A stretch of DNA of 64,000 bases from Longimicrobiales bacterium (GCA_965116905.1 OZ220732.1:896001-960000); one strand, 5' to 3'. Positions 48,501-57,704 are shown, counted from the stretch's first letter. The notes: a model not told the origin generated them from the sequence alone. Numbers and translations: made by a program.

Positions 48501-48959
48501 TCACCCCTTTGGCAGCGAGCCCGACTCCTCGCCGGAGCCCAACGCGCGCCCGGCCTTGCGGGCGACCAGCAGGCTGGCCACGCCGCCTCCGGCGCCGAGG
48601 AGTGGCAGAATGCTGAACGGGACGATGGCGCCCCCGTTGGGCCAGTCCCCCCAACTGCCGCCCACAACGAGTCCTGCCAGCAGGAGGCCGCCCAGCACGC
48701 CCACCGATGCGACTCGTGAGTAGGAAAGCTCGTCCAACGAGCGGCCGCGCGCCTCGATCGCCAACATGGCCGAGAAGCTCGTACCGATCCCGACGCCCCA
48801 CACGGTCCCCGCAATGATCATGAACCCCAGCTCATCCTCGGCACCGGGAAAGAACACCTTGCTGGCCAAAGCGACCAGTGAGAAGAACCCCGCGCCGACA
48901 GCGCCGAAGGTCAGCCCCATGCCGAGGACACCACGAACGACTTTCTTCCAACGCGACAC
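48501..48959 (-). CDS. Small multi-pass membrane protein
   Basis: RBS AGGAGG; about four hydrophobic segments. Confidence 0.75.
   Translation of the reverse strand: MSRWKKVVRGVLGMGLTFGAVGAGFFSLVALASKVFFPGAEDELGFMIIAGTVWGVGIGTSFSAMLAIEARGRSLDELSYSRVASVGVLGGLLLAGLVVGGSWGDWPNGGAIVPFSILPLLGAGGGVASLLVARKAGRALGSGEESGSLPKG
48733..48840. repeat. 108-bp direct repeat, copy 1
   Basis: Matches 53854-53961 with 9 mismatches by manual alignment. Confidence 0.9.
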
Positions 48960-49358
48960 GGCGGCCTCCTGCTTGCAGTGATCTGGTGCCATGGAGGATA
49001 CCTGAGATAGGGTCGGGCGTCCAAGCGGTTGCCAGCGCGGTAAGGCCCAGGGCAGCGGCAGATTCAGGCAGCACCTAAGGCGGTGACACTCGCCGAATTG
49101 ACGCCACCCGTGCGGGACGGCTGCGAGGCGAGAAAGCGCAGCAGTTTCCCGCAGGTCCGCTTCTTCAGTGGCCGCCGACCGGACCCCGCAGCCCGGTGCA
49201 CCTGAGAGCTGCGTTGCACGTTTTCCCGACTGGGACTGTTAACTCTATCGCACAGGGGAGGTGCGGACGCTGGAAGCTCTCTTCCGAGCCTCAGTTTCCC
49301 GTAGATCCCTGACTCGGGGGAAACGCCCTCGTAGACACTCACAAGAGGAGGAAGCATC

Positions 49359-49640
49359 ATGACGTACCGCCAGTTGTTCTCGCTTTTGCCGGACTTTCCG
49401 AAGCCGCTGAGGGTCGGAGTGTCACTCCTTGCCGTCCTTGCGACGGCGGCGGGAGCTGGTACCCTCGCGACATCCCCGGCTGCGGCTGCAGTCGGTTCAC
49501 CCTTCTTGGATTGCACGTCAGAACAGGTGGACATAGGGTTTGAGGTCATCGGTCGAGAGTGCGGTGGTCCGGGTGTGGGCATCATCCATTGTCACTCGAG
49601 CGGTAGCGTGATCGTCGAGGATGTCCATTGCCTTGCATGA
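49359..49640 (+). CDS. Small secreted Cys-rich peptide (C-x15-C-x9-C-x12-C)
   Basis: Strong RBS GAGGAGG; hydrophobic signal-like region; paralog of 52322-52615. Confidence 0.8.
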   Translation: MTYRQLFSLLPDFPKPLRVGVSLLAVLATAAGAGTLATSPAAAAVGSPFLDCTSEQVDIGFEVIGRECGGPGVGIIHCHSSGSVIVEDVHCLA

Positions 49641-49857
49641 GGCCTGTTCGGCCTGTCTTGCGTGAGAGCGACCGTTAGCCGCGGTCGCAGCTGCGTGGGA
49701 CAACCTGTGCCCGCTCCCGCTTCCGCAGCCTGTGTCCAAGCGGAAACCGCGCTGCGTGAAGTGGGAGCGGGAGCTTCATGCTCAGTAACGTGACTCCTGT
49801 CGCATCGGTCTGCCGGAGCAGCCCATTGCCATTGTATGGAAGGATGAGCGAAACACA

Positions 49858-50547
49858 GTGAATAGAGAAAAGACCTCTTCTGTCATCGCGAACCTCATGG
49901 TCATTGTGAGTGTTTGTTGCGCGGTTGTTATGACGACCGCCGTCTTACGGCGCGCGCCTGGCACTACGGAATCGATCCAACCGCGCGAGCCTGCGACCAC
50001 CGGTACTCAAGAGATCCAGGATTGGGCTGCACTCGCGTCAGGTGGTCACGATCTTGGACCAGAAGACGCGCCTGTGTGGATTGTCGTATTCTCGGACTTC
50101 CAATGTCCAGCATGTCGCGCTCTAGCTACACGGCTCCGCGCGCTCAATTCAACGCAGCCTGCTCTTGCTAGGGTCTTCTATCGACACTTCCCCCTGCCGT
50201 CGCACGTACATGCTGAGGAGGCAGCTTTGGCAAGCGAGTGCGCCGCAGCGCTAGGGCGCTTCCTGGCCTTTCACGATGTCCTGTTCTACGAGCAAGAGGT
50301 AATCGGCCACATGCCTTGGCAGTACTTTGGCGATCTCGCCAACCTAAACGACATTCCCGCATTCACGGAGTGTATCCGAGTGGGCGAGCCGATGACCCGT
50401 ATCGTAGACGATCGGCGAACAGGCGAACTCATGGGGATTGATCGTACGCCCACTTGGCTCATCAATGGTACCGTGGTTGTTGGAGTCCCATCGCTATCGC
50501 GCATTAAGGACTTGATCGCCCAGCATCGCACGGCGGATCCGCAATGA
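49858..50547 (+). CDS. DsbA family thiol-disulfide oxidoreductase
   Basis: TM anchor; GPEDAPV..VFSDFQCPAC; YRHFPL; GIDRTPTWLING. Confidence 0.9.
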   Translation: MNREKTSSVIANLMVIVSVCCAVVMTTAVLRRAPGTTESIQPREPATTGTQEIQDWAALASGGHDLGPEDAPVWIVVFSDFQCPACRALATRLRALNSTQPALARVFYRHFPLPSHVHAEEAALASECAAALGRFLAFHDVLFYEQEVIGHMPWQYFGDLANLNDIPAFTECIRVGEPMTRIVDDRRTGELMGIDRTPTWLINGTVVVGVPSLSRIKDLIAQHRTADPQ

Positions 50548-50602
50548 GGTGATATCGCGATGTCCGTCTGCAGTAACCCACAAGGAAGAAAGGCAAAACA
50601 AA

Positions 50603-51097
50603 ATGACTGATCGAAGAATCGTCGCGGTGCGGCGCCCCATGTTGTCGTGGGCTTACCTCGCTGTAACGCTGCTCTTAGTCGGCGCTGAGAACGCTTCTGC
50701 CCAACAGCAGATCAGCATTCCACGAAACCCAGCCAATGGGTACGTCGGCCTGAGCTACCGGCCAACGGACTTCACGGAAGCTGACGTACAGAAGCGTGCC
50801 CTTCCATTCGTAATCGCCGTGGTTCCTTGCTCGCCGGCCCATTTTGCTGGAGTAGAGCCTGGCGATGTCCTTCTTCGGGTAAACGACCAGGACTCGAGAG
50901 GCCGGGGGCTGTTTCGCGGGACCATTGGAACAGAGTATCAAGTGACCCTAAGACGTGCAGACGAACTGTACGACCTACGGTTTGTCCGCGTTGAGCTTCC
51001 GACACAAATGCCTGCGCCCGTGCGAACCTCTCCCATGGGATCGACGGAAGAATGGAATTGCAGTAGTTCTCAGTGGTTCGGGGCTGTGGAACAATGA
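50603..51097 (+). CDS. Secreted PDZ-domain protein
   Basis: Signal peptide (ASA); GYVGL; VVPCSPAHFAGVEPGDVLLRVN. Confidence 0.8.
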   Translation: MTDRRIVAVRRPMLSWAYLAVTLLLVGAENASAQQQISIPRNPANGYVGLSYRPTDFTEADVQKRALPFVIAVVPCSPAHFAGVEPGDVLLRVNDQDSRGRGLFRGTIGTEYQVTLRRADELYDLRFVRVELPTQMPAPVRTSPMGSTEEWNCSSSQWFGAVEQ

Positions 51098-52182
51098 GAG
51101 GTTGGCTGGTACTAGCGGTGGTTGGTATGGCCGTTGGGACGTGCGAGAGTAACAGCAGCGAAAGCCACGAGAATCCGGTTGAGGTCTTCGAGATGAGGGA
51201 AGAACTCAGGATCGGGCGTGCAACTGGCGCTGGCCCGGAGGTCTTTGGGCGGATCGTGTCCCTGGCTGTCGATGACCGCGGCGCGATATACGTGGCTGAC
51301 TCGCATGGGCCGGCGATAATCGCGTTTTCCTCCGAAGGGAAGTTTGTCCGGCGCATCGGGCAGCAAGGACAGGGGCCTGGAGAGTTTGGGAGCCTTGAGG
51401 GTATCGCCTGGCAGCCAACCACTGCGACTATATGGAGCATGGACTTCACGAGGCGCACCTTAATGGGCTTCGATACACTCGGCGTGCATCGGTCTACACA
51501 CCGGTACGCGACAGAGACGATGCACTTTAGCCTACCATGGGTGGGGCGGATAGACGCATCGGGGCATCTTTATGACTTGGACCCGATGACCCATACGCAG
51601 GTGGTTAGATACCAACTATCTGTGGACACCGTAGGGCCGGTTGACAGTCTAGCTATACCGGCGGTCCGACCAGAACCGCCAACCTACACGATCCGCCGCG
51701 GGGCTCTGACGGAGCTAGCCACTGTGCCCTTCAGCCCGTGGATTGCCTGGGATGTATCGCCGCAGGGCAATGTGCTGTTGGCCAACACCTCCGTGCTTGA
51801 GATCCACGAGGTGACATTCGACGGTGACACGATCTATTCAATAGCGCTTGACCGTAGCCCGCCTCCGCTGGAGCGTCGAGTGCGTGACAGTATCGCAAGC
51901 GACATCGGAGTGCCGTCGAGATTGTTGCCGAAGCATAGGACCGCCATGGAAGACGTGGTCGTTGGATTGGACAATAGCATCTGGATTGACTTGACCGATG
52001 ACACGCAAAGCTCATGGGAAGTGTTTGACGAGAAAGGCCACCATATCGGACAGGCAACATCGCCTTTGGTCATCAACAAGAAACCCCGCCCGGTCGTCAC
52101 TATGAGGACCCTAACAGGAATCACAGAGGACGACTTAGGCGTTCAATATATTGTGCGACTAGGGATTGAATTCCCCACCTGA
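51094..52182 (+). CDS. Six-bladed (NHL-like) beta-propeller lipoprotein
   Basis: Signal with Cys; EELRIG, IYVAD, GQQGQGPGEF, EDDLGVQYIVRL; paralog of 47341-48495. Confidence 0.85.
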   Translation: MRGWLVLAVVGMAVGTCESNSSESHENPVEVFEMREELRIGRATGAGPEVFGRIVSLAVDDRGAIYVADSHGPAIIAFSSEGKFVRRIGQQGQGPGEFGSLEGIAWQPTTATIWSMDFTRRTLMGFDTLGVHRSTHRYATETMHFSLPWVGRIDASGHLYDLDPMTHTQVVRYQLSVDTVGPVDSLAIPAVRPEPPTYTIRRGALTELATVPFSPWIAWDVSPQGNVLLANTSVLEIHEVTFDGDTIYSIALDRSPPPLERRVRDSIASDIGVPSRLLPKHRTAMEDVVVGLDNSIWIDLTDDTQSSWEVFDEKGHHIGQATSPLVINKKPRPVVTMRTLTGITEDDLGVQYIVRLGIEFPT

Positions 52183-52321
52183 CCTGGGAAAGGAGGTGTA
52201 TAGCAAACACAGGGAGAAACGGGGAGTCGCAGTCCCTGGCTCGCGAAGGGAAGCATAGCTATCGTTGTAGTCACCCCAAAGCAGTTTGATCAAACCAATC
52301 GTTGAAAGGGAGTACATTATC

Positions 52322-52615
52322 ATGCGGAAGCTTTTTCTTGTTGACATGGCAGGCATCAAGCGCGGCGCAGCTGCAAGGTACGCTGCACTTCTAACCAGTC
52401 TGTTTACGATCGTAGGGGGTGCACAGGCTGCTGCGCCTCTTTCGGTCGCGGCGATGCCTCATTCGGAGACAGGCGCGGCCCCCAATTGCTCTGCGGCAGC
52501 CGTAGCGGCCGCTATGGGTCTCTTGTGGAAGAGGTGCGAGGGGCCGGGATCGGCGACTCTCCACTGCAGCGAAGGTGGGTCGGTTCTCTTGGAGAACGTC
52601 GAGTGTGAGGAGTAG
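52322..52615 (+). CDS. Small secreted Cys-rich peptide (C-x15-C-x9-C-x12-C)
   Basis: RBS AGGGAG; signal-like region (AQA); paralog of 49359-49640. Confidence 0.8.
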   Translation: MRKLFLVDMAGIKRGAAARYAALLTSLFTIVGGAQAAAPLSVAAMPHSETGAAPNCSAAAVAAAMGLLWKRCEGPGSATLHCSEGGSVLLENVECEE

Positions 52616-52889: not shown

Positions 52890-53250
52890 CGCCGGCTGAA
52901 GTACGGACTCGGCCGGAGCCAGGGGAGATCGCGGTCATTCTCGCGATCTCCCGCACCACGGTCGGCAGCTAGGTCCGGCGCGGGAGCGACCGGGGGCTGG
53001 CGCGGCACAGGGGCGTGACGTTTCAGCTCCTGATGGTACGAGTGCCGCGCGCCCCCGGACGGATATCAGTACAGCCGCTTCTGCGACCACTACCGCGTGG
53101 GGCTCGGTCGCCTTGAACCCGATGTCAACCGAACATACCATGACCTGGCGGTGCACGACCGGATGGCGGTGCTGCCCGCCCGGCCGCGCTCGCCCCAGGA
53201 CAAGGCGAAAGTGGAGGCGACCGTCCAGAACGTGGGACCATGGCTTCTTG
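52890..53250 (+). pseudogene. istA: Internally deleted IS21-family istA transposase remnant
   Basis: Fragments RLKYGLGRSQGEIA..AISRTTV, PDGYQYSRFCDHYR, and EPDVNRTYHDLA...VLPARPRSPQDKAKVE, separated by stops/frameshifts. Confidence 0.75.
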
Positions 53251-53853
53251 GCATCCACTCGGGGTGCTACCGGGCCTGCTGGGTGCCGGCCCGGAACCCG
53301 CTCGAAGTGTTGGCGGTCGAGAAAGGCGAGAGGATTGATCGGGACATGCTCGAGGAGGCGCCTAGGTCTGGTCGACCTCTCCCTCGACCGGCAGGTCATC
53401 ATGATTGGCCTGTGCGTCGACAGGCTTTTTCCGGAGATCGGCCGCGCGCAGCTCGATCTGTCGTACCTGATACATCGGGGGCTCCATGTACGAGGGACTC
53501 CGCCTCACGGGCGTTCCCGGAAGGTATCACGCTGACCGGACTCCCTGTTTCCGTAGCTCGTCAGTCTTTGATTCGGGTCTCAACTCGAACTGTTCGAGCT
53601 TCTCGAATATGGCCCTCTCCCCCCTGATCGTGGTGGGCGGAGTGCCGGTGAAGGTCAGGGCCCAACTAACCTCTTAGCGGTTCGTCGCCAAGCCGGGATC
53701 GTCGGGTGTCCGAGGGGCACACCAACGTTCTCACTTGAGCGCCACCCGACCTCACGCTGCACAGGCGTTAGCGGGATAGGTCCCCAAGGCATCACGATGG
53801 ATGGCGCTGGGAAGTCCACAAGCGCGAGGAGTCAGAGGGGGTCGAGGACCTTC

Positions 53854-53961
53854 TCCAACGAGCGGCCGCGCGCCGCGACCGCTAGCATGGCCGAGAAGCT
53901 CGTACCGATCCCGACGCCCCAAACGATCCCCGCGATGATCATGAACCCCGACTCATCCTCG
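53854..53961. repeat. 108-bp direct repeat, copy 2 (fragment of the 48501-48959 membrane gene)
   Basis: About 92% identical to 48733-48840. Confidence 0.9.
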
Positions 53962-54014
53962 GTGGGGAGCCCGCCGTGATTGAGAAGCTGGCCCGGCGTT
54001 GAGGGCGAATGCGG

Positions 54015-54578
54015 TTATCCGTCTCCTGCCGACAGCATGTTTTGGGCCACCACGCCGAGCTGCCGTCCGTGACCGTCGGCCACGACGCGACCTCGCCCGT
54101 CGACCGCGAAGACCCACGGCGTCCGTTTCGTAATGGCATGACCGAGGGGCTCGGCCGATGTGACGATGACGGGCCATTGTCGGTCACGGAGGTAGTCCGT
54201 CGCCCCTGGACCGGCAGCAACGGCAATGATCCGATAGCCCTTGTGTACGCTCCCTTCCAGCCAGTCAGACCAAAGGGGTGCAACACGGCGGCTATGGGCG
54301 CAGTCGGGGTCAAAGACGAGGAGGAGCGCAGGCTGCCCCGTGCCGAGCTCCTGCAACACTCCGTGGGAATCTCTCAACGACAGATCCGAAAGGTCATCTC
54401 CCCTCGTCACAAAAGGGGACGGGCCATCGGTGTGGGCCTTGACGTAAGCGAAAGCGAGGGCTTGAAGGACGGCCACGACAGCCAGGCCGGCGACGGCAAC
54501 GTGCCATGGCCCGCGCCAAGAACCTCTCCTCTCGCTCTCGGGAAGAATCTCGGCGCTCGCGGCCTCGTTCGATGACAT
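54015..54578 (-). CDS. Membrane-anchored thioredoxin/peroxiredoxin-like protein
   Basis: TM helix; LLLVFDPDCAHS (CxxS); RTPWVFAVDGRGRV. Confidence 0.8.
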   Translation of the reverse strand: MSSNEAASAEILPESERRGSWRGPWHVAVAGLAVVAVLQALAFAYVKAHTDGPSPFVTRGDDLSDLSLRDSHGVLQELGTGQPALLLVFDPDCAHSRRVAPLWSDWLEGSVHKGYRIIAVAAGPGATDYLRDRQWPVIVTSAEPLGHAITKRTPWVFAVDGRGRVVADGHGRQLGVVAQNMLSAGDG

Positions 54579-54824
54579 TGCGACCCCCCGTTGGGATTGC
54601 CAGGCAGGACAAAGGGCGCCTGCCTTCACTGTCCCTGCTAACAGGTGAGATGCCCACAGCGTGCAATCGGAGGACGTGGTAGCCAACAGGCGCGAATTGC
54701 ACGATTCCGTCCTGGGATCTGTTAGTTGATCATAAAGAGGGGAGTGACCCCTCATTCGGGGCGTGGCCCAGTGGAGTCTTTTCTGGCCCAGTTGCCTTGT
54801 TTTCTTCCCAGAAGGAGTGGAAAC

Positions 54825-55025
54825 TTGCGAGCTACCGCGATAGTGCTCATCCTGCTGAACCTTGTCCTCGGCGCGGGTCTACTGGAGTCGATCAGGAACG
54901 ACGCGACTCGAGCGCAGGGCTTCCGCAGTTGCTGCCGTGTTGCAGGTGCCGAGGCCTACTGCTGTGACCAGTGCTGTTGGTTCCGCACCGATTGTGACTT
55001 CGACAGCGATTGCCAGGATGCCTGA
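54825..55025 (+). CDS. Small secreted Cys-rich peptide (8 Cys, three CC pairs)
   Basis: RBS AAGGAG before TTG; hydrophobic N-terminus; CC-x8-CC-x2-CC-x5-C-x5-C. Confidence 0.75.
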   Translation: MRATAIVLILLNLVLGAGLLESIRNDATRAQGFRSCCRVAGAEAYCCDQCCWFRTDCDFDSDCQDA

Positions 55026-55062
55026 CCGGTAGGAGGTCGCGGTTGATCGGGAGGCTGAACGG

Positions 55063-55866
55063 ATGACGACGACTCAGCGCCGCAGGAAACCTGTCGGCTG
55101 GGCCGGGGCCTGCTTCAGGGCCATGGCGCCTTGGCTTTTGCTGCTCGTGGGTGGCAAGGTTGTCCTGACCCAGATTTGGGCGCCGCTGGAAGAGGCGTCA
55201 TCGCTGTCTCGATGGCTTTGGCTCATCATTGATGACCTTGCCTTGGTCCTTCCGTTCCTCCTTTTCGCGGTGGGCCTTGCTCTGGGACGAGTGCTGGGGC
55301 ACTCGGGGCGAGTGGTTCGGGTCGCCGTACTGGTGGGCATGGCGGTGAGCATCCTGTCCTACAGCTTGGGTGCCTGGGCGGCGCCGGAAATCGAGGAGCG
55401 GCTTCGGGCGGCGCGGCGTGCCGACACCGTCGACACACGTCAGTTCGGAATCCCAACGCCGGTCGGCATCCTCCGCAATCTTGAATTCGTGAGGGCCAAT
55501 CCACCGCCCCAATACAGCCTTCGAACGAGCAGTCCACAGGAGTTTCCTCCCAACGTGCTGCTCTGGCGCTTGCACCAGCCACTGGCGTTCGCCGTATTCG
55601 GGATCGCCAATGTGCTCCTGGGGCTGCTGGCTTCCGAGTTGACGGTGGACCTGTCGAACCGGGTGAGGCGAAATGTGCGCCTGGCCGTGGGCGTCGGGGG
55701 CGCGATCGCGTTCCTGGCCTGCATGGTAGTGGCTTCCCCTGTCGAGCCGTTCCTGCGGGACGGCACCATGCGTTCGGGAATCGTCGGCGCGTGGCTGCCG
55801 CTCCTGATCCCGCTTGTCGAGGGCTTGGTCCTTCGGTACCTCGTCCAAAGCCGGCGGTACGGATGA
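55063..55866 (+). CDS. Multi-pass membrane protein
   Basis: About 6 TM segments with an extracytoplasmic loop; ATGA-coupled to the sigma factor. Confidence 0.7.
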   Translation: MTTTQRRRKPVGWAGACFRAMAPWLLLLVGGKVVLTQIWAPLEEASSLSRWLWLIIDDLALVLPFLLFAVGLALGRVLGHSGRVVRVAVLVGMAVSILSYSLGAWAAPEIEERLRAARRADTVDTRQFGIPTPVGILRNLEFVRANPPPQYSLRTSSPQEFPPNVLLWRLHQPLAFAVFGIANVLLGLLASELTVDLSNRVRRNVRLAVGVGGAIAFLACMVVASPVEPFLRDGTMRSGIVGAWLPLLIPLVEGLVLRYLVQSRRYG

Positions 55867-56555
55867 CTGACACGACGTTCGGTGTCCCCCCTTCACTCTC
55901 GGACGATGTGACGCCCGCAGGGGAGAAGCCGCGCCCGTCCGATGCCGACGACATGCCGGACACAGAGGGTGCCGACGACACGCCGGACACAGAGGGTGAT
56001 GCCATTGACGGGGTGGCCTTTCGGGACGGGGACGAAGAGTGCTATCGCGCCGTCCTGGACCGTTTTGAACTCCTGATTCGCAAGGTCTTGTCGTCGTATG
56101 GAGATTGCGATGCCGACCGGCAGGACCTGTATCAGGATGTCTGCGTCCGCATTCTAGAGCAGCGCCACGGATACCGGGAGCAGGGCGCGATGGGCGGATG
56201 GATACACACGCTGGCACGTAACGTGGCCCAGAACTGGCGCGACTCGCAAATCGCACGTGAGTCGGCGCAAGACGAATATGTGGCCGCGTTCGCGCCGATC
56301 GCCGCGGCCAGGCACATCACCGAGGACCCATCGAGGCTCCTGATCCGCAAGGAGCTCCTGGCCAACGTGGAGCGGGCTCTCGACGCCATTTCGGACCAGC
56401 AGGCGAACGCGCTCAGATTGGTCCACATCGAAGGGTACAGTGTCAAGGAGGCTGCTCAGCTCCTGGGCACCAAGCCGGCGACCGTGCGATCCAACGTGCG
56501 CCATGCCAGAGAGAAACTGCGGGAACAGGCGGAGTTGAGAGATGAAATGTCCTGA
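55863..56555 (+). CDS. ECF sigma-70 factor
   Basis: DLYQDV...WIHTLARN; EGYSVKEAAQLLG...TVRS...AREKLR. Confidence 0.9.
   Translation: MTDTTFGVPPSLSDDVTPAGEKPRPSDADDMPDTEGADDTPDTEGDAIDGVAFRDGDEECYRAVLDRFELLIRKVLSSYGDCDADRQDLYQDVCVRILEQRHGYREQGAMGGWIHTLARNVAQNWRDSQIARESAQDEYVAAFAPIAAARHITEDPSRLLIRKELLANVERALDAISDQQANALRLVHIEGYSVKEAAQLLGTKPATVRSNVRHAREKLREQAELRDEMS
55943..55996. repeat. 27-bp tandem duplication in the sigma N-terminus
   Basis: TGCCGACGACA(T/C)GCCGGACACAGAGGG x2. Confidence 0.85.
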
Positions 56556-56982
56556 CCTGAGAACGCTGAGCCGAGTCGGTACGCCCAATGCCGATCCGGC
56601 CGTCGTGGAACACGTGGTGAGTTGCCGTTCGTGCTGGCTGGACTGGCAGATCCAGCAAGGCATGCGTTATCTGGAGGATCCGGTGGTCCAAAACGCGTCG
56701 GATGTGAACGACCGGGTGATCGCCAGGGTCCGCATCAGGGCGCGGCGTGATTCTGAGCCGCCGGCGAGGTGGCGCGATGCCGCGTTGTTCGGCGCAGTCG
56801 TCGCGATTGCGGTGCTCGCTTTCCTGTTGGCAGTTCCGGCGGCCGCAGTGGCTATACCGGTCGCCCCGGCGGTGGGGTACGCGATCCTGGCGGGTGTCCT
56901 GGGCACGCTCTACGTCAAGAAGCGGGACGAAGGTCGCGTTGCTGGCGATTCCGCCGTGGGAGCGGCAGGTCCTGATCTCTAG
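56542..56982 (+). CDS. Putative zinc-binding membrane anti-sigma factor
   Basis: C...HVVSCRSC (HxxxCxxC); two C-terminal TM helices; overlaps the sigma gene. Confidence 0.75.
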   Translation: MKCPDLRTLSRVGTPNADPAVVEHVVSCRSCWLDWQIQQGMRYLEDPVVQNASDVNDRVIARVRIRARRDSEPPARWRDAALFGAVVAIAVLAFLLAVPAAAVAIPVAPAVGYAILAGVLGTLYVKKRDEGRVAGDSAVGAAGPDL

Positions 56983-57135
56983 GCCACGGAGTTCCGCACT
57001 TGCCGCACCGGTGCGTTGCAGCCCTGCGCACCGCCTACCAGTCCGGTAGCGGTCTGGCTACAGTCCGGTATCAGTCTTGATCTCCTTGTCATTGGCGGGG
57101 TTGCCAATTTTTGCCAAAGCGGCTAATCTCCCCCC

Positions 57136-57375
57136 ATGAGCACCATGAACATCTCGCTTCCGGCTTCTCTGAAGTCCTATGTCGACGACCAGGTGGAGGG
57201 TCGCGGATACGGGAGCAGCAGCGCGTATGTCCGCGAACTCATCCGCCGTGACCGCGATCGCCAGCATCTCCGGAGTCTGCTGCTCGAGGGCGGCGAGTCG
57301 GAGCCCGCGGCCCCGGCGGACGCCGCCCATTTCGAGACGCTGCGGAACCGCGTTCGCCACTACTCGGGGGAATGA
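57136..57375 (+). CDS. parD: ParD family antitoxin
   Basis: MNISLP..LK..VD..V....YGSSSAYVRELIR...LLLEG..S. Confidence 0.9.
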   Translation: MSTMNISLPASLKSYVDDQVEGRGYGSSSAYVRELIRRDRDRQHLRSLLLEGGESEPAAPADAAHFETLRNRVRHYSGE

Positions 57376-57704
57376 CGCCGAAGCCGGTGGTTCTGCGTGC
57401 GGCAGCCCGGCAGGACGTCGATGCCGCGGTCAGCCACTACCTGGCGGGCGCCGGCCGTAAGACCGCGCTGCGCTTCGTCGAGCGAGTGGAGGAGGCGCTT
57501 CTCCACGTCGGCGTGAACCCGGAAACGGGATCGCCGCGCTACGGCCATGAAGCCAACCTGCCGGGGCTCCGCTCGTGGCCGGTTCGGTCCTTTCCCTATC
57601 TTGTCTGCTACATGACGGCCCGTGGCCGGGTGGATGTGTGGCGGGTGCTGCACCGCCAGCACGACATCCCGGCGTGGATGGACGAGAGTGAGGGACTGAG
57701 ATGA
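57372..57704 (+). CDS. parE: RelE/ParE family toxin
   Basis: AARQDV...P..GSPR...LRSWPV..FPYLV.Y...VWRVLH..DIP; ATGA overlap. Confidence 0.88.

Follow-up and report, generated by a model that had tools for sequence, protein, structure and literature searches.

A conserved five-gene cassette of Gemmatimonadota with an ECF sigma factor, an LptF-derived membrane protein and a probably exported eight-cysteine peptide

Several described systems resemble parts of the locus analyzed here. In the SigW-RsiW pair of B. subtilis, a sigma factor of the extracytoplasmic function (ECF) type is combined with RsiW, a single-pass anti-sigma factor with an extracytoplasmic domain. In the SigM-YhdL-YhdK and CnrH-CnrY-CnrX systems, the anti-sigma factor depends on another protein, located in the membrane or in the periplasm. 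Thioredoxin-fold proteins are encoded beside the disulfide-bonded product that they are thought to fold in the cases of BdbAB for sublancin, PedC for pediocin, and MauD, and relatives of TlpA and ResA are reductases. Bufferins, e.g. BufA with SigF and NrsF, are Sec-exported cysteine-containing miniproteins encoded beside an ECF sigma factor and an anti-sigma factor, and, according to the available text of the respective study, their metal binding requires thiooxazoles made by MNIO enzymes (PMC11626156). Here, we report on a stretch of 64,000 nt from a Longimicrobiales bacterium (GCA_965116905.1 OZ220732.1:896001-960000), termed the window in the following, which at positions 54015 to 56982 contains a conserved, unnamed five-gene cassette of Gemmatimonadota. 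The cassette is of the ECF/ZAS type and has two undescribed components; no description of its peptide family or of its LptF-derived anti-sigma partner was found in the openly accessible part of the literature. Judged from sequences, it may constitute an autoregulated ECF circuit in which a folded exported peptide provides the input from outside for a complex of the LptF-derived protein and the anti-sigma factor, a reading that we regard as possible, but somewhat short of probable. Support is good for the cassette, for its promoter, and for the LptF-derived partner; for the peptide, candidate roles are put forward.

The first of the five genes (54015-54578) is encoded on the minus strand and specifies a membrane-anchored TlpA/ResA-like protein with a thioredoxin fold. 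It is divergent from an operon of four genes on the plus strand. The operon begins with the peptide gene (54825-55025), which has a TTG start codon that is preceded, at a distance of 7 nt, by the ribosome binding site AGAAGGAG (54810-54817). Its stop codon is separated by 37 nt from the gene for a six-helix membrane protein with the transmembrane fold of LptF/LptG (55063-55866). This gene overlaps the ECF sigma factor gene (55863-56555) by the sequence ATGA, and the latter overlaps the anti-sigma factor gene (56542-56982) by 14 nt. The five open reading frames (ORFs) were found where a first-pass annotation of the window had placed them, including the divergent orientation of the peptide and the thioredoxin-fold gene and the position of the peptide upstream of the other three genes. 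Among the five proteins, only the sigma factor and, weakly, the membrane protein (LptF/G at E 0.08) matched Pfam or NCBIfam models, while the single sequences of the peptide, the thioredoxin-fold protein, and the anti-sigma factor matched no family of these collections at E 0.1. In one metatranscriptome, a contig about 95% alike covered positions 56252-56965 and none covered the peptide gene; contigs of this kind cannot show absence.

The sigma factor consists of sigma2 and sigma4 only (PF04542 and PF08281; TIGR02937 at 80 bits, compared with a cut-off of 42.9). Its N-terminus is extended by about 50 residues of acidic character, which include the tandem duplication DDMPDTEG/DDTPDTEG (55941-55998); this is missing from its paralogues. 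The anti-sigma factor carries an N-terminal cysteine and an HxxxCxxC motif. These residues, C3, H24, C28, and C31, are conserved in at least 90% of 45 sequences, and the profile of the family matched residues 1-77 of RsiW (5wuq_C, E 4e-4). Both results support the ZAS label given in the first-pass annotation; zinc binding and inhibition of the sigma factor are putative. The C-terminal part contains two short hydrophobic segments and no periplasmic domain; therefore, a partner would be needed for any outside signal to be sensed. The similarity to SigW-RsiW thus comprises the overlap of the two genes, the RsiW-like C3 and HxxxCxxC residues, and the predicted autoregulation. In contrast to SigW-RsiW, the cassette has two short hydrophobic segments in place of an outside domain, a partner of LptF descent that is fused in some cases, and, linked to these, a peptide and a thioredoxin-fold protein.

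Autoregulation and a -10 box of the CGT type are typical of ECF sigma factors, according to the available text of PMC8103513. The motif TTGCAC-N17-YGTYW is present about 130 nt upstream of the peptide gene and also, on the other strand, upstream of the thioredoxin-fold gene. Both copies read ATTGCAC-N17-TGTTA and are located at 54696-54724 (+) and 54639-54667 (-), respectively, so that the operon of the sigma factor is preceded by a predicted sigma-specific bipartite promoter. With a matrix that had been trained on 14 sites of other genomes, 11 sites in this genome scored above 24 bits, compared with none in a shuffled copy of it. Of the 11 sites, eight precede eight-cysteine peptides, thioredoxin-fold genes, or three unrelated secreted cysteine-rich ORFs, and three precede nothing evident. 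Strong intergenic copies without an evident downstream gene were seen at G000:C1:394917 (-), 1873657 (-), and 1565324 (+) of this genome; two of them are followed by AGAGCATGC. The three copies may be remnants or small RNAs.

In 18 genomes of the same genus that encode this anti-sigma factor, the motif was found 2-14 times per genome (125 matches), compared with 0-1 times in six genomes of the genus lacking it (2 matches) and 0-2 times in each of 16 further genomes. Two control patterns, one reversed and one off-spacer, yielded 0-3 matches within the genus; the off-spacer pattern, with a spacer shortened by one base, yielded none in this genome. The pattern was derived from loci of these genomes, which makes the genome counts partly circular and to this extent weakens the proposed circuit, although the training sites account for only a minority of the 125 matches. 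It is very likely that the sigma factor would read this motif and thereby drive its own operon, the thioredoxin-fold gene, and other small secreted cysteine-rich proteins.

The structural model of the membrane protein (pLDDT 91.5) has the six-helix transmembrane fold of LptF and LptG. A fold search retrieved LptG/LptF with Z scores of 16.7, 16.1, and 15.0 over 220-230 residues, the next row having a score of 7.7, and in the Atlas an LptF/G cluster was found at 0.90. However, the protein differs from the LptF and LptG subunits of LptB2FG in several respects. The model contains no strand and thus no beta-jellyroll; the segment between transmembrane helices TM3 and TM4 (P108-H171), where LptF/G carry the jellyroll, has 60-65 residues in all 83 membrane proteins. 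The link between TM2 and TM3 (P64-P108) comprises 39-46 residues, in contrast to 56-57 in the LptF and LptG of the same genome, whose ordinary lptF/lptG pair is located elsewhere. The protein is therefore about 12 residues short where LptF/G have the coupling helix for the ATP-binding cassette (ABC) subunit. Lastly, at 40 loci of the type present in the window (class 1, see below), a simple scan of the surrounding 3 kb for ABC ATPase motifs found none. Taken together, the missing jellyroll, coupling helix, and ATPase neighbor indicate that the protein is LptF/G-like in its fold, but is not a subunit of a lipopolysaccharide (LPS) transporter. Homologues of 560-2000 amino acids were not found, which is weak evidence. 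The Atlas also contains unnamed clusters of 306-327 amino acids, commonest in Myxococcota and Spirochaetota, at 0.92-0.93 to the membrane protein; these may be further jellyroll-less LptF/G derivatives.

Intact fusions of the membrane protein with the ZAS anti-sigma factor were found in P0223, P0232, P0235, P0237, P0238, and at locus L036. With high probability, the two proteins would act as one unit, with the membrane protein supplying the outward surface. Such an arrangement would be comparable to SigM-YhdL-YhdK and CnrH-CnrY-CnrX; however, no homology to these systems is expected, and here the accessory protein is LptF/G-derived and has a peptide attached to it. In one further homologue, P0175, the leader of the peptide is fused in frame to the membrane protein and the cysteine core is absent.

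The peptide precursor of 66 amino acids has the cysteine frame CC-x8-CC-x2-CC-x5-C-x5-C. As described in the first-pass annotation, eight cysteines follow a hydrophobic leader within about 30 residues (C36 to C63, i.e. 28 residues). Of the two findings that the annotation had named as refuting its proposal, an untranslated TTG-start ORF and homologues located away from thioredoxin and ECF genes, neither was obtained. The status of the TTG-start ORF as a gene is supported by three observations: an identical 66-amino-acid sequence has already been called as a gene in a public protein collection, the family is conserved, and dN/dS was below 1 in 47 of 47 pairs with more than 70% identity (median 0.21; the pairs are not independent). 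A profile search yielded homologues in 151 clusters at 50% identity, and exactly eight cysteines are present in 119 of the 150 listed homologues. The window peptide was aligned with 126 of these 150, 24 extended or truncated ones being excluded. In the resulting alignment of 127 members, all eight cysteines and Asn12 are conserved in at least 90%, and Asn12, located inside the hydrophobic leader, reaches 97%. Relevant models of Pfam and NCBIfam were matched by none of the 127 members at a threshold of E 0.01.

The peptide family was detected in 27 of 401 genomes of the phylum, in 20 of 69 genomes of the family, and in 16 of 150 genomes of a family-wide draw. A scan of species genomes for the cysteines at fixed spacing returned 120 stretches, 80 of which were listed with DNA. 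Twelve of the 80 are true members; 11 of these carry the title Gemmatimonadota, including Longimicrobiales, and the remaining one that of Bryobacterales, which points to a gemmatimonadotal host. Several candidate extensions were rejected. Of six weak phylum-level matches outside the family, the four inspected are divergent cysteine-rich peptides with a similar leader and not clear members. Matches with an apparently internal TGA had suggested selenocysteine, but at the five loci checked these codons are the true stop codons. Three matches of 19 residues on viral contigs were judged to be due to chance, and the label "Spy/CpxP chaperone" on two cluster members was unsupported by family scans.

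The structural model of the peptide (pLDDT 82) comprises a helix (residues 2-25), a beta-hairpin (34-40/43-51), and a short C-terminal helix. In many members the hydrophobic stretch is followed by Pro and A-x-[TSA]-Q, which by eye resembles signal peptidase I sites, and the peptide is likely exported. The first-pass annotation had compared its vicinal cysteines with disulfide-knotted toxins. The comparison amounts to a resemblance: the core is acidic, no solved structure was matched by sequence at E 10, and the Atlas scores of 0.76-0.81 are a lead only.

The thioredoxin-fold protein has the active site DPDCAHS. By its family profile, it consists of an N-terminal anchor and a thioredoxin fold and is similar to TlpA, ResA, and DsbE; the profile matched 2m72 (E 1e-8), 3hcz, 3ia1, ResA, TlpA, PDI, and also DsbE-type proteins. 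In 69 sequences, numbered from the residue after Met, the first cysteine and the proline of RTPW (a loop of the cis-Pro type) are invariant, and a glutamine in the anchor helix is conserved in 94%. The CxxS site emphasized in the first-pass annotation is present here as CAHS in place of CxxC; however, it is not a property of the whole family, in which the second redox position is S in 43%, C in 42%, and T in 14%. The anchored CxxS protein would form and reshuffle mixed disulfides with the exported precursor, and a dedicated folding role is probable. A tethering of the two proteins through the leader Asn and the anchor Gln is speculation. In contrast to the products of the BdbAB, PedC, and MauD loci, which are bacteriocins or an enzyme subunit, the peptide is encoded at a locus with its own sigma circuit, at which neither a peptidase ABC exporter nor an immunity gene was seen.

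The genomic neighborhood was analyzed for 79 distinct peptide loci, 67 of which had at least 3 kb on each side and were used for counting. A thioredoxin homologue was found within 3.5 kb at 58 of the 67 loci, and an ECF sigma factor was near 54, in agreement with the link to both that had been proposed in the first-pass annotation. This genome contains four copies of the peptide, each next to a thioredoxin paralogue and an ECF sigma factor. In a search with a four-row profile, the peptide was found in 19 of 24 genomes of the same genus and in 0 of 16 genomes from two other families of the order; the five genomes of the genus without any peptide also lack the anti-sigma factor. The three additional copies in this genome and the occurrence in 19 of 24 genomes exclude chance as the origin of the cassette. 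The loci fall into two classes. Class 1 (36 of 67) has a membrane protein of 267 amino acids, a separate ZAS anti-sigma factor, and always an 8-residue first loop in the peptide. Class 2 (22 of 67) has a fused membrane protein of 400 amino acids and no ZAS protein, and in 21 cases the first loop has 9 residues. Nine loci belong to neither class, one of which has a further divergent copy of the membrane protein. The N-terminal part of the class 2 protein is homologous to that of class 1 over 212 columns (97.5%). An exact match to the promoter motif at a distance of up to 3 kb was obtained for 28 of 36 class 1 loci, 0 of 22 class 2 loci, and 0 of 9 other loci. Despite varied gene orders, no swap between peptide clade and membrane protein class was found among the 58 loci. 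In the proposed mechanism, the folded peptide would bind the periplasmic segment of 60-65 residues of the membrane protein and gate the release of the sigma factor, a step that we consider conceivable, yet a little less likely than its opposite, and to which we assign no sign. The circuit would then report the peptide level or periplasmic disulfide folding.

Several results weigh against such an input role. The two peptide classes represent the two sides of one well-supported branch, and, because this is one ancient split, the match with the membrane protein classes counts only once. The C-terminal part of the class 2 protein has a weak, cysteine-free likeness to the anti-sigma factor (47.7%), and the fusions of the membrane protein with the anti-sigma factor may represent just one or two events. 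Mirror-tree distance correlations at 35 class 1 loci single out no partner (membrane protein 0.57, anti-sigma factor 0.54, thioredoxin-fold protein 0.46, sigma factor 0.45). Eight of the 67 peptide loci lack a membrane homologue. Conversely, among 28 places of the membrane gene in a draw of 151 genomes of the family, the peptide is located directly upstream at 15, divergently at a distance of 0.9 kb at one, and is absent from 12; 11 of these 12, as inspected, mostly retain the sigma and anti-sigma factors. Therefore, retention of the sensing module does not require the peptide. In addition, the predicted regulon includes unrelated cysteine-rich proteins, which fits an output role.

Alternatively, the peptide might thus be only an exported output, acting on a propeller lipoprotein or on a competitor or host, while an envelope sensor sufficient in itself is formed by the sigma factor, the anti-sigma factor, and the LptF-derived protein. 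For this, the LptF fold suggests a lipid or an LPS-like cue. The peptide-less places and the motif upstream of the three unrelated secreted ORFs agree with this explanation, as do the propeller-type genes adjacent to the peptide at 25 of the 67 loci, one clade of five peptides that retains the thioredoxin-fold protein and the propeller without the membrane protein, and the highly variable loops between the cysteines. However, the peptide gene is located directly upstream of the membrane gene at all class 1 and most class 2 loci, and never with that of the other class. Moreover, the peptide core has a median net charge of -3 and is negative in 89% of the 127 members, unlike cationic antimicrobials, and the exact motif is present at only three of the 12 peptide-less membrane loci, so that some of these 12 may be decayed or rewired. 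On balance, an exclusive output role is plausible, but does not reach an even chance.

The first-pass annotation had also considered a metal chelator, and a periplasmic metal buffer of the bufferin or metallothionein type would be induced by the ECF sigma factor under metal stress, with the thioredoxin-fold protein keeping its thiols reduced. The eight cysteines, the acidic core, the signal peptide, and the linked sigma/anti-sigma pair are reminiscent of bufferin loci, as far as these are described in the available text of PMC11626156, and both the kinship with the reductases TlpA and ResA and the CxxC sites in part of the thioredoxin family would be compatible with it. However, six variants with six cysteines are present among the 127 members, and all have lost cysteines in fixed pairs, namely C36 and C51 in P0097, P0125, and P0126, and C47 and C50 in P0086, P0091, and P0137, possibly in just two events. 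Because cysteines were lost only in pairs, four disulfides are favored over metal binding, and, on this indirect evidence, the peptide likely carries four disulfides. His and Met are scarce in the core (median 1), and MNIO (DUF692, PF05114) is absent from this genome, which is 97% complete, while a control genome was positive. At class 1 loci, the thioredoxin-fold protein has CxxS or CxxT in 30 of 35 cases and cannot complete a normal reductase cycle. The cassette also differs from bufferin loci in its cysteine frame, in the lack of a family match for any of the 127 members, and in a dedicated thioredoxin-fold protein in place of MNIO, DUF2063, and DoxX. The paired losses, the Sec-type leader with its dedicated thioredoxin-fold protein, and the missing MNIO thus disfavor a chelator, which we regard as improbable. 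Even less probable is a peptide that is never released, whose helix with the Asn remains in the membrane, and whose cysteine core serves as a tethered redox or metal sensor of the anti-sigma complex. In its favor, Asn12 within the hydrophobic region is unusual for a plain signal peptide, the thioredoxin anchor has its conserved Gln, and in P0175 a leader of this kind is followed immediately by the membrane protein, but the sites resembling those of signal peptidase I in many members argue against it.

Among these readings, we favor the peptide as a possible input of the ECF circuit. More specifically, a subunit of the LPS transporter, having lost its jellyroll and its contact with the ATPase, might have been reused as the receptor for a self-made four-disulfide miniprotein and coupled to a ZAS anti-sigma factor. 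Through paralogous pairs of peptide and receptor, each cell might possess several channels, separate from one another, by which a regulon of secreted miniproteins rich in disulfides is controlled. Both proposals are tentative and less probable than not.

A predicted regulon member is also located in the window (49212-49640, +), i.e. a weaker copy of the promoter (49212-49244) followed by an unrelated secreted peptide with four cysteines (49359-49640). It opens a second cassette (49359-52615, +), in which this peptide and a paralogue (52286-52615; 34% alike in the core) surround genes for a DsbA-like, a PDZ, and a six-bladed propeller protein. A crude filter yielded 20 short ORFs with a signal peptide and at least four cysteines in this genome; nine lie within 3 kb of a thioredoxin, DsbA, propeller, or membrane gene, a zone that makes up 9% of the genome. 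The genome also contains 58 propeller-like ORFs. These observations suggest a wider class of cassettes composed of a miniprotein, an oxidoreductase, and a propeller. Elsewhere (G000:C1:394340-394786, +), an ArsR-like gene is followed by a tiny leaderless, metallothionein-like ORF with eight cysteines. The five-gene cassette is flanked by a fragment of an IS21 transposase on its left (53097-53965), by a ParDE pair on its right (57136-57704), and, further to the left, by another copy of the membrane gene, which is broken (48501-48992). A contig of run X1 joins window position 53361 to 57079, skipping the cassette, with 114 other letters in between, which is a weak hint at relatives without the cassette at this site.

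In the main text of a published article (PMC7826278), the terms "Gemmatimonad", "LptF", and "TGCAC" do not occur; the sigma group analyzed here might be included in the supplement, where groups are described and promoter motifs given. The main text of PMC12452194 contains neither "Gemmatimonad" nor "thioredoxin". The cassette represents a complete, small, and testable signaling module of five genes and a predicted promoter in a phylum with almost no characterized regulation. It places the LptF/G fold outside of LPS transport and ties it by gene fusion to an anti-sigma factor. A further addition is a family of bacterial miniproteins, at least 150 in number, that likely contain four disulfides in an unusual triple-CC frame and likely have a dedicated folding partner, and the promoter motif allows further secreted cysteine-rich miniproteins to be listed in these genomes. 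If the proposed input role is true, the peptide would be a signal of a new kind, with control over its own genes.

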